Below are positions 12,297 through 14,866 of a stretch of DNA of 64,000 nucleotides, piece after piece. The position numbers were made by a program, and so were the translations under genes. The DNA is from a virus. Lineage: Duplodnaviria; Caudoviricetes. The stretch lies in IMG/VR virus record IMGVR_UViG_3300020050_009209. One strand, written 5' to 3'. How positions within the stretch are numbered: the first letter of the stretch is position 1; every line of letters begins with the position of its first letter. The notes under the pieces were generated by a model. That model was not told the origin of the DNA. It saw nothing but the letters and a program-made list of their open reading frames with translations, and searched no databases.

Positions 12297-12911
12297 ATGG
12301 CAGACGGGTACCTTATCCTTGTAGACCCAACTGAGTTAGCAAATCGATTCTCCACTCAACCCAAAGAATTTGAGGAGGAGGAACCTGAAGTAAGTACGAG
12401 TATGGCTCTGAGCTATGAGAGCCAGATTCAACCTCTATTAGACCGGATCCCTAAAAGGGAGGCGGATCTCATGGAGTTGTACTACATGCAAAAGAAACGT
12501 CAGGCAGACCTTGCCGAGATCTTTGGGGTGACCCAAGCTGCAATCAGCTACAGGTTGAACCGAGGACTCCAGCGAATTAGGTTCCTGCTGTCGATCCCAA
12601 CCCTCAGTGAAGATGGGTTACGTCAGGACCTCCCAGAGGTGCCATTTAAGCCGACTGACGTTAACATTCTTGTGGGTATGTGGCAAACAACTTGCCAGTC
12701 TGAAGTAGCTTCCAAGTTAGGCCTAACTCAAGGTAGAGTTAGGCATCGTTTTTTTGGGGCTGTAGTAGTCCTAGAGAAGAGGGCTGCGGAGGACCCTAAG
12801 TTCGTCCCCTACTCCAAGGTCTTCAGTTCCATTGCGAACAAAAATTTCAACGTTTTACGCGAAGTTAAATTGCCACAATGGCAGGGACGAGGCGGAGACG
12901 GCTGTTTTTAG
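12297..12911 (+). CDS. sigma70 region-4-like transcription factor with two HTH domains
   Basis: RIPKREADLMELYY..QADLAEIFGVTQAAISYRL and QSEVASKLGLTQGRVRHR; GAGG RBS. Confidence 0.7.
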   Translation: MADGYLILVDPTELANRFSTQPKEFEEEEPEVSTSMALSYESQIQPLLDRIPKREADLMELYYMQKKRQADLAEIFGVTQAAISYRLNRGLQRIRFLLSIPTLSEDGLRQDLPEVPFKPTDVNILVGMWQTTCQSEVASKLGLTQGRVRHRFFGAVVVLEKRAAEDPKFVPYSKVFSSIANKNFNVLREVKLPQWQGRGGDGCF

Positions 12912-12950
12912 TTGGGTTTGTGTGTCACCTAAAGACAACCTCGAAAAGGT

Positions 12951-12978
12951 TTGACTCAGTGGTCGCGAGAGCTATACT
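12951..12978 (+). promoter_or_regulatory. sigma70-type promoter (leaderless) for the HNH/MTase locus
   Basis: TTGACT-16 bp-TATACT, then 6 nt to ATG 12985. Confidence 0.7.
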
Positions 12979-13072
12979 GAGCCCATGTACCTGAAACATG
13001 GACTCAGTAACACGCCAGAGTATAAGTGTTGGCAGCAAATAAAGGCTCGCTGTATGAACTCCAACCACCGAG

Positions 13073-13778
13073 CGCGCCTCGCGGGGCTGCCATGTTGAAG
13101 CCGTTTTTCCCGTTCTACGGGTCCAAGTGGCGCGATGCAAAGCGCTACCCTGCGCCTCGCGAGATGGTCATCGAGCCTTTTGCTGGGTCGGCCGGATACG
13201 CGACATTTCACGAGCCTGCGCGCGTGATTCTGAACGACTTCGATCCCATCCTCGTTGGAGTGTGGGACTACCTGATCCACGTCTCGCCGGCAGAGGTGCT
13301 CGCGCTCCCCGACCTCGACGTCGGGCAGAACGTGGATAGCCTTTCGCTCCCGCAGGAGGCACGATGGCTCATCGGCTTCTGGCTCAACCGTGGATCGTCG
13401 CAACCCAAGAAGACGAAAACGGCGTTTTCTGCGCGTACCGAGCGAGCGCAACTTGTGTGGTCCCAGCGGGCGCGCGAGCGAATCGCCTCGCAGGTGGGCC
13501 GCATTCGTCACTGGGAGATCCGATACGGCGGTTACGAATCGGTCCCGATGGCCGAAGCCACATACTTCGTTGACCCGCCGTACCTCGGCAAGGGGCGATT
13601 CTATCGCTTCCACGATGTAGACTATCCGCGCCTCGCGGCATGGTGTCGACGCATGCCAGGCGACGTCATTGCCTGCGAGAACGTCGGCGCGGACTGGCTC
13701 CCGTTCGAGCCGCTGGCCGTGATCAAAAGCACGAAGGGAACATCGGTGGAGGTCGTATTTTCGCGCCTCGCGGGGCTG
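13073..13778 (+). repeat. 17-bp direct repeat CGCGCCTCGCGGGGCTG bracketing the MTase (13073-13089 and 13762-13778)
   Basis: Exact match read from the sequence; partial copies at 13152-13161 and 13627-13638. Confidence 0.9.
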
Positions 13779-13793
13779 GAGGTGGCGAAGTGA
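13092..13793 (+). CDS. Dam/D12-class N6-adenine DNA methyltransferase
   Basis: FYGSKW motif X, IEPFAGS motif I, ILND, FVDPPY motif IV. Confidence 0.9.
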   Translation: MLKPFFPFYGSKWRDAKRYPAPREMVIEPFAGSAGYATFHEPARVILNDFDPILVGVWDYLIHVSPAEVLALPDLDVGQNVDSLSLPQEARWLIGFWLNRGSSQPKKTKTAFSARTERAQLVWSQRARERIASQVGRIRHWEIRYGGYESVPMAEATYFVDPPYLGKGRFYRFHDVDYPRLAAWCRRMPGDVIACENVGADWLPFEPLAVIKSTKGTSVEVVFSRLAGLEVAK

Positions 13794-14866
13794 AGTATCA
13801 TGCGAACGCCATCGGAAACGGAGAGGCGCGCTTACCTAGATTATGGTGGTCGTGGGGTAACGATCTTTGATGGGTGGGTTAAAGACTTCAGGGCCTTCTT
13901 GGCTCATGTTGGTCCCCGTCCTTCTGATGGTCATTCGTTGGATAGGTACCCTAACCTCAACGGTAACTATGAGCCTGGTAATGTCCGTTGGGCTACAGAT
14001 AAGGAACAGAACAACAACCGTCGTCCTCACCGGAAGCATGGTGTGAAGCTTTGTTCGAGGCCCGTTCGGACTGACGGTAAGCCTACTAACTTCAAGCACG
14101 GTGGAGTTGGGACTCCAGAATATCGGGCGTGGTCTCTGATGAAGGACCGTTGTTTGAATCCGAAGAGTGGTAACTATCCATATTGGGGTGGTCGGGGCAT
14201 CAAGATTCACGAACCATGGATCGTAGACTTTCTGGTTTTTTACCAATACATTGGTCCCCGCCCCTCGCCTCAGCACTCGCTGGATCGAATCGACAATAAT
14301 GCGGATTACCAACCTGGGAATGTTCGTTGGGCCACAAAGTTGGAGCAAACAGAGAACAGGCGTCCGTGTAAGGTAGGACCTACTCACGGCAATTTTGACC
14401 ACGGTTACACTGGCACTCCAGAGTTCAAGACTTGGACGAGCATCAAGACTCGATGCTTCAACGAGAAGCATGACCGTTATGTCTCCTACGGTGGAGCTGG
14501 CATCACGATGTGTCAGCGATGGAAGAGCAGTTTCCCTGCCTTCTTTGAGGACCTTGGATCAAAGCCAACCTCAGAGCACACAATCCTTCGAGAGAGTCAA
14601 GAGGGGCATTACTCTTGTGGAGGGTGTACGGAGTGTCTTGAAAAGGGCTGGAAGCTCAATGCACGTTGGGCTACACGAACCGAAGTTAACCGAAACCGCC
14701 GCCCTTCTACGAGGTCCGGTAAGCTCACCCTAGAGAAGGTGCAAGACATCCGTGCTCGTATCCTTAAGGGTGAGACGCACAAGCAACTCGCTGAAGTGTT
14801 TATGGTGGGCGTTACCTTGATTGGAAAGATAGCTAGACGTGAAATCTGGCTTTAGAGGTAGCGACC

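Follow-up and report, generated by a model that had tools for sequence, protein, structure and literature searches.

A 17-bp direct repeat around a GC-rich adenine methylase gene inserted into a large phage genome

A GC-rich methylase insert in a split phage gene

The DNA studied here is a window of 64,000 nucleotides (the whole stretch that was analysed; bases 170,964-234,963) of the 379,936-bp IMG/VR virus record IMGVR_UViG_3300020050_009209, which has direct terminal repeats and a GC content of 51.5%. Within this window lies a foreign, GC-rich insert of 758 bp (positions 13073-13830, plus strand; GC 0.63 vs 0.515 for the genome) that splits a phage gene, hereafter the host gene, and carries an orphan DNA methylase gene. 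The methylase open reading frame (ORF) is tightly bracketed by the two copies of a 17-bp direct repeat, DR1 on the left and DR2 on the right, and the origin of this repeat is our subject. Features are on the plus strand unless stated otherwise.

The methylase ORF (13092-13793, 233 aa) is predicted to encode a Dam-like N6-adenine DNA methyltransferase of the D12 class. Judged by sequence, the protein has all the marks of this class: a profile score above the curated cut-off (PF02086, 25 bits vs 22), an AdoMet-type, FxGxG-like motif (EPFAGSAG) and a DPPY catalytic motif (VDPPY). We collected 2157 homologues, the best of which (P0128, P0125, P0126, P0127 and P0004) are 87-89% identical.

The host gene (12985-14855; P0002 + P0003) is made up of three repeats of about 110 aa (TPEYxxW...GGRG...NVRWAT..NRR) and a C-terminal tail resembling a helix-turn-helix. 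Its protein halts at ...NSNHRA before the insert and picks up at YLDYGGRG after it. The uninterrupted orthologue in a syntenic sister phage (L051/L072, 57% identical) reads ...DHRAYPNYGGRG, with CGG GCG TAC at the site. The placement of the insert is ambiguous by at most 2 nt, the host alanine codon being either GCG or GCT, and the empty site of the host gene is predicted to read CACCGAGC[GT]TACCTAG. What remains of the gene is an N-terminal stub (12985-13098), which continues from ...NSNHRA through DR1 as RLAGLPC into a TGA 4 nt past the methylase ATG (ATGTTGA), and a C-terminal part (13800-14855), which restarts at an ATG supplied by the insert and can be aligned with the L051 orthologue over its residues 8-350. 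The host gene had no Pfam match at E <= 0.01, and profile searches gave no support to its being an HNH or homing endonuclease. A known RNA element or intron at the locus was rejected on an Rfam search over 12800-14000, in which nothing approached the thresholds. Upstream of the host gene there is a promoter-like TTGACT-16-TATACT at 12951-12978, and just past it a 14-nt inverted repeat (13/14 complementary; 12975-13009) spans the start codon, which may be a regulatory hairpin or an operator.

An exact 255-aa ORF (P0124, 13026-13793) runs across the left junction and DR1 into the methylase gene and includes DR2. It is present on six contigs of the Joint Genome Institute, from six metagenomes, the longest of 381,772 bp, indicating that the same phage with the insertion allele has been assembled repeatedly. 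Searches of phage relatives for alleles with an empty site or a deletion scar turned up only relatives of 57% identity, and among deposited phages a relative was found in three records only, at about 41% identity.

The direct repeat and its recurring core

The 17-mer, CGCGCCTCGCGGGGCTG, is exact in both copies and has a GC content of 88%. DR1 (13073-13089) lies at the left junction between host gene and insert and stops 2 nt short of the methylase ATG, reading RLAGL in the frame of the host stub; DR2 (13762-13778), 689 bp away, encodes residues (S)RLAGL of the methylase tail. A preliminary description of this DNA had placed the repeat at these positions, with shorter copies at 13152-13161 and 13627-13638, and we recovered every one of them. 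Allowing up to three mismatches, DR1 and DR2 are the only occurrences in the 64-kb window, where 0.05 matches are expected, and they are also the only occurrences of the 17-mer in the full 379,936-bp genome. Elsewhere in IMG/VR the 17-mer is found in seven unrelated genes, all of which encode xRLAGLx in frame, so the 17-bp unit is ordinary high-GC coding sequence. None of these seven copies is followed by CCATG, as at the left copy or in a circle, or by GAGGTGG, as at the right copy or in a scar.

The shorter copies share a 10-bp core, GCGCCTCGCG (complement CGCGAGGCGC). The copy at 13152-13161 is the core itself, read in another frame (APRE), while the 12-mer at 13627-13638, CGCGCCTCGCGG, holds the core at 13628 and encodes YPRLAAW, which is kept in the relatives of 87-89% identity. 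To these we add an imperfect copy, CGCCTCGCAGG, at 13484-13494, read in the third frame (IASQV). DR1, DR2 and the 13627 copy read RLA in frame, and the copies at 13152 and 13484 lie in the remaining two frames; with copies in all three frames, a repeated peptide does not account for the motif. The genome has five copies of GCGCCTCGCG, all forward, four of them in the insert and one immediately ahead of another GC-rich methylase insert, described below. The suggestion that the motif is over-represented relative to codon-shuffled methylase sequence was borne out. In 5000 shuffles that held the amino acids and codon usage constant, a 10-mer present four times arose in only three trials. With both repeat copies excluded and all eight sub-10-mers of the repeat allowed, at least two extra 10-mers had P = 0.0043, and at least three extra 8-mers had P = 0.0014. 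The background of the 10-mer in generic GC-rich phage DNA of the homologous loci is about 0.03 per kb per strand.

The last residues conserved in the family are ...TSVEVVF, and DR2 starts 1 nt past that last codon. The closest relatives (P0128, P0126 and P0004; 87-89% identical overall, about 90% in the core) diverge exactly where DR2 begins, with tails of IKRAA* (P0128) and LLGEVSK* (P0126) vs SRLAGLEVAK* here. Across 127 homologues the tail beyond the conserved aromatic residue varies in sequence and in length (2-50 aa), and RLA occurs only in that of the window methylase. Past DR2, the insert continues (13778-13830) with the last methylase codons, EVAK*, a GGAGG Shine-Dalgarno (SD) sequence and, 7 nt further on, a GTG at 13790 overlapping the stop (GTGA). 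Because 17 of 47 homologous loci have the same 4-nt overlap between the methylase stop and the next gene, this 52-bp tail reads as native donor sequence, and to judge by its layout it probably includes 14 codons from the start of the gene that followed in the donor (MKYHANAIGNGEAR...). A degenerate DNA pattern for that N-terminus (MKYHANAIGNG...) had no match in IMG/VR or in the homologous loci. Deleting DR2 alone from 13758-13793 would place TTT TGA right after the last conserved codon and keep GAGGTGG-N5-GTG, a compact junction of stop, ribosome-binding site (RBS) and start; this may be chance, at about 1 in 16.

The ends of the insert also carry the motif. The inversion of the core reported at the right end is present: the right arm, GAGGCGCGCT (13823-13832), is complementary at 10/10 positions to AGCGCGCCTC at 13071-13080. 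Of this terminal inverted repeat 8 bp lie inside the insert, and 10 bp are reached with flanking bases, precisely at the insert ends. From base composition, the probability that 8 bp match in exactly this terminal position is about 2.5e-5 to 5e-5 for each placement. The 8-mer, CGCGCCTC, occurs forward at three sites, all within the insert, and inverted repeats are not enriched at homologous methylase loci. Both insert ends fall at GCGCGC, so that an origin as a restriction fragment was considered, but two internal GCGCGC sites (13218 and 13470) speak against it.

Tests of mobility and repeats at other loci

Recombination between the two copies would, as had been calculated, remove 689 bp, and the 69 bp that stay behind would keep the frame of the host gene and include a single TGA; we checked this arithmetic. 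The 689-bp circle would close the methylase ORF on itself as ...SRLAGLPC*. The predicted junctions are GTATTTT + 17-mer + CCATG for the circle and CCACCGAG + 17-mer + GAGGTGG for the scar. On this basis the repeats had been proposed to be recombinase sites, either att-like or integron-cassette-like, and here the proposal did not hold up. The 380-kb genome has no match to Phage_integrase (PF00589), for which all 14 control genomes were positive, or to Resolvase (PF00239), for which control genomes were also positive. No GTTRRRY is present in 13041-13860, and the sole RYYYAAC in that interval, at 13382, lies deep in the ORF. For 79 nt that cover the 69-bp element, the folding energies are -14.9 kcal/mol (plus strand) and -13.0 kcal/mol (minus strand), with z = -0.75 and -0.82 vs shuffles, and a hairpin of the attC type or of the repetitive extragenic palindromic (REP) type was rejected since the folds are no different from shuffles. 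Subterminal hairpins of the IS200/IS605 type, as in palindrome-associated transposable elements (PATE), were likewise not found: there is only a 4-bp CGCG stem, with z = +0.36 for 13060-13110 and z = -0.65 for 13740-13800. DR2 sits 52 bp inside the right insert boundary, so no identical core stands at both boundaries. The 17-mer flanks the methylase gene at 0/45 viral and 0/10 bacterial homologous loci, and both it and the core are absent at the aligned positions of four homologous methylase genes (58-70% identical). The reading as att or integron sites therefore fails for want of a phage recombinase, core sites, a significant hairpin, placement at the boundaries and conservation in homologues, though an enzyme encoded by the host of the phage might still act on such sites. 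As for a transposon or miniature inverted-repeat transposable element (MITE), the insert has the terminal inverted repeat of such an element, while its junctions show only 0-2 bp of ambiguity and the genome no further 17-mer copy; no search took up the transposase families individually.

Although the 17-mer itself is not conserved across homologous cassettes, its arrangement is found again at several of them with sequences of their own. We took as a measure the longest exact match between the intervals start-80 to start+10 and stop-90 to stop+80 of each methylase gene. A match of at least 12 bp was found at 5/45 viral (IMG/VR) loci and of at least 15 bp at 4/45, vs 6 and 0 of 1125 spacing-matched random window pairs (Fisher P = 2.6e-5 for 12 bp or more); among control ORFs called mechanically, 2/240 had a flanking match of at least 12 bp. 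One more case, L067, came from the 10 bacterial loci. The repeats are specific to their locus and 12-57 bp long, and in extended alignments they measure 31 bp with 29 identical in L015, 28 bp with 27 in L020, 35 bp with 31 in L034, 57 bp with 51 in L047, 25 bp with 24 in L007 and 37 bp with 32 in L067. In L007 and L015 the repeat consists of the C-terminal tail of the upstream ORF, the RBS and the ATG, and in L034 and L047 of 14-18 codons from the start of the gene downstream. A search for an empty site of the L015 locus found L015 alone. Two further loci deserve mention in their own right. At L035:2149-3762 there are two tandem paralogous methylase genes of this family with common C-terminal tails (...QGFQEQITLF* and ...QGFENQSEQITLF*), and so tandem copies of a methylase gene exist in nature. 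At L020:2606-3995, three consecutive genes have near-identical tails (...TPKPEEGA*, ...TPEPEEE* and ...TPEPEEGA*) that contain the SD of the next gene; repeated junction sequences of this kind could favour cassette exchange.

The phage genome itself offers further cases, with exact repeats (35, 14 and 17 bp) at the compositional boundaries of 3/9 GC-rich islands. Outside the window, a 340-bp GC-rich insert at G000:C1:80933-81342 (L079:1434-1843) carries a minus-strand ORF resembling sigma-70 region 4 between exact 35-bp repeats of phage sequence; it splits a host gene (...EVDVKVSVNGV|DIDPK...), and the TGA of the stub overlaps the GTG of the insert. A leader, GCGAAGTGA, common to this insert and the one studied here was discarded as a shared signal, its five genome copies vs 2.9 expected not being significant. 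The second GC-rich methylase insert, also outside the window (G000:C1:121152-122816; L059:1653-3317), is about 1.6 kb long, encodes a PF01555-like protein of 513 aa and has an exact 14-bp repeat, GTCGAGTGAAGCTG, at its GC boundaries. Its removal restores a host ORF of about 95 aa, the right repeat giving the last two codons and the stop, and no orthologue of this small gene was found in the one sister record searched. Its 104-bp left flank is the tail of a donor gene, with ATGA on the methylase start, and holds the sole copy of GCGCCTCGCG outside our insert. Both the 14-bp and the 35-bp repeat have phage composition, their removal restores the host ORF, and no mobility gene accompanies them. 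Three GC-rich islands with boundary repeats, in a genome with neither integrase nor resolvase, indicate that the phage repeatedly acquires GC-rich DNA by a process that leaves short duplications. The insert studied here resembles the other two in its genome, its GC-rich cargo, the split host gene, the coupling of stop and start, the lack of a mobility gene and a short exact duplication. It differs in that their repeats have phage composition and stand at both boundaries, whereas the present repeat has a GC content of 88% and a right copy 52 bp in from the insert boundary.

Origin of the repeat and comparison with known systems

We tentatively favour the view that the 17-bp repeat is a scar of illegitimate recombination rather than a working site, and that it arose in the donor and was later carried in with the 758-bp piece. 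The preliminary description had offered, as its other reading, that the repeats record an earlier insertion of the methylase into donor DNA. This is the better-supported of its two readings because the repeats bracket the ORF, homologous genes are bracketed by locus-specific repeats significantly more often than controls and the 52-bp tail looks native to the donor, and it is short of proof. Since the 17-mer is absent from the empty phage site (L051/L072), the repeat is not phage target sequence. An origin of the duplication in the donor, and the order of events given here, are inferred. In a GC-rich donor, perhaps a phage or prophage of a GC-rich bacterium, illegitimate recombination would have spliced the methylase ORF in between closely packed genes, duplicating 17 bp of local coding sequence reading RLAGL. 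One copy would have been left before the ATG, and the other would have become the C-terminal tail of the methylase, followed at once by the SD and GTG of the gene downstream. At a later time, a piece of 758 bp containing both copies, the ORF and 37 bp past the methylase stop may have been captured into a break in the triple-repeat phage gene by end joining with 0-2 bp of microhomology. In its present setting, the repeat would have incidental roles only. DR1 lets the host stub read through to a TGA overlapping the methylase start, for a probable translational coupling, and DR2 codes for part of the methylase tail. The pair could still allow rare loss of 689 bp by short-homology recombination, which would leave the 69-bp scar with its TGA and would not mend the host gene. 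An empty donor site would be expected to have a single 17-mer directly followed by GAGGTGGCGAAGTGA and no methylase gene. On this view the repeat is real but fairly ordinary.

Several points weigh against a scar from the donor. DR1 begins exactly at the left capture junction, which we estimate to be a coincidence of about 3-5% if the repeat already existed, and the scar accounts neither for the terminal inverted repeat of 8-10 bp precisely at the insert ends (about 1e-4 by composition) nor for the recurrence of the core inside the ORF above codon shuffles (P = 0.001-0.004). The repeat is also shorter than the 30 bp that Furuta, Abe and Kobayashi (2010; PMC2853133) use as the criterion for a "long target duplication". 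Finally, a weak likeness between LAGLEVAK* and the LLGEVSK* of the relatives hints at a native tail, and MAFFT does not align the two.

The position of DR1 is what would be required if it were templated filler made during the capture into the phage, by template switching or microhomology-mediated repair. The left 3' end of the host, or a switching replication fork, would have copied 15-17 nt of the methylase 3' end, then jumped back to a point shortly ahead of the ATG and gone on to copy the entire gene. Should the host alanine codon be GCG, which is what the sister phage has, then DR1 opens with two host bases (CG); these match the CG at 13762-13763 and could plausibly have served as microhomology. 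The right insert end bears an inverted 8-mer of the same source sequence, and the phage has other untidy captures. This route is the main rival of the donor scar, and we nevertheless consider it doubtful. The donor end that was joined is 689 bp away from the template, the start of the template 1 nt past the last conserved codon is unaccounted for (a coincidence of about 5% by our estimate), and the excess of flanking repeats at homologous loci is not predicted by it. Templated fillers as long as 15-17 nt are also uncommon. A nested insertion within the phage, in which a 69-bp GC-rich piece came first and a 689-bp methylase unit followed with a 17-bp target duplication, would suit the size of the 14-bp and 35-bp duplications of the same genome and would put a duplication at the inner junction and none at the outer. 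It strikes us as improbable, for it requires two independent captures within 69 bp of a 380-kb genome as well as the coincidence at the left edge, and the 69 bp resemble an ordinary junction between donor genes (stop, SD, GTG) and run on from the methylase tail without a break. Chance, or convergence of preferred high-GC codons on a shared RLAGL, is barely credible: with the amino acids fixed, a 17-bp repeat was regenerated in 31/5000 codon shuffles, and the 17-mer recurs in unrelated high-GC genes encoding the pentapeptide, but the same pentapeptide would be needed at both edges of one ORF, its RLA is peculiar to the tail of this one methylase among the 127 homologues compared, and the expectation for the window is only 0.05 matches.

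The insert might instead be a site-specific or transposon-like cassette with CGCGCCTC ends and subterminal copies, from which a recombinase or nuclease acting in trans excises the 689-bp circle or moves the 758-bp unit. The perfect inverted repeat exactly at the ends is in keeping with this, as are the 4-5 direct copies of the core (P about 0.001-0.004), the location of the only other genomic 10-mer just upstream of the second captured methylase gene and the closed ORF that a circle would hold. Yet the genome has neither a tyrosine nor a serine recombinase nor a third 17-mer, IMG/VR has no context of the circle or scar type, attC core sites and a significant hairpin are lacking, DR2 is off the right boundary, homologous loci show neither the motif nor an excess of inverted repeats, and the target duplication is 0-2 bp only. 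We give such a cassette a slender chance, and a marginally smaller one to its full form: a recombinase-less mobile methylase unit of 758 bp with inverted ^CGCGCCTC ends and subterminal direct copies, cut at the motif by an enzyme in trans, in which recombination at the 17-bp repeat frees a circle of 689 bp, its ORF joined up with its own start codon. Three oddities that involve the same motif, namely the start of DR1 at the junction, the inverted repeat at the termini and the extra copies of the core within the ORF, keep motif-guided cutting or joining faintly alive, with no further copy, context or enzyme to support it; if a true preference lay behind them, it would point to a sequence-guided step in gene capture.

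Set against known systems, the insert shares with integron gene cassettes, which move by attC x attI recombination through IntI, a promoterless single-ORF unit able in principle to form a small circle, repeats close to the ends of the ORF and a 69-bp 3' element bounded by an imperfect inverted repeat. It differs from them in that insert and genome are without IntI or another tyrosine recombinase, terminal RYYYAAC/GTTRRRY and a significant attC-like fold, and in that the repeat does not stand at both boundaries. Templated insertions at repair junctions, by microhomology-mediated break-induced replication (MMBIR) or template switching, are known mainly from eukaryotes and from rearrangements in E. 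coli. The likeness to these lies in a short copy of nearby sequence exactly at a junction, with a possible 2-nt microhomology, and the difference in a template 689 bp away and a mechanism that is proposed from sequence.

In its treatment of such events, the study by Furuta and colleagues (PMC2853133), citing Nobusato et al. (2000), describes insertions of restriction-modification genes or solitary methylase genes with a long, variable target duplication and no mobility gene, and reports a gene fusion at one such insertion. The present case resembles them in a methylase gene of foreign composition with locus-specific direct repeats around it, no transposase or integrase (neither PF00589 nor PF00239 is represented in the genome) and a gene end fused to the flank. 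It differs in that the repeat measures 17 bp vs more than 30 bp, though homologous loci reach 25-57 bp, and lies inside the foreign DNA instead of duplicating recipient phage sequence. The insert provides a base-exact example of a virus gaining a defence-related gene, an orphan methylase, without mobile-element machinery. Taken with the homologous loci, the sequences suggest that methylases of this family as a whole tend to travel as the ORF alone, leaving behind short duplications specific to each locus, which would extend to the orphan methylases of phages what was described for restriction-modification genes of bacteria.

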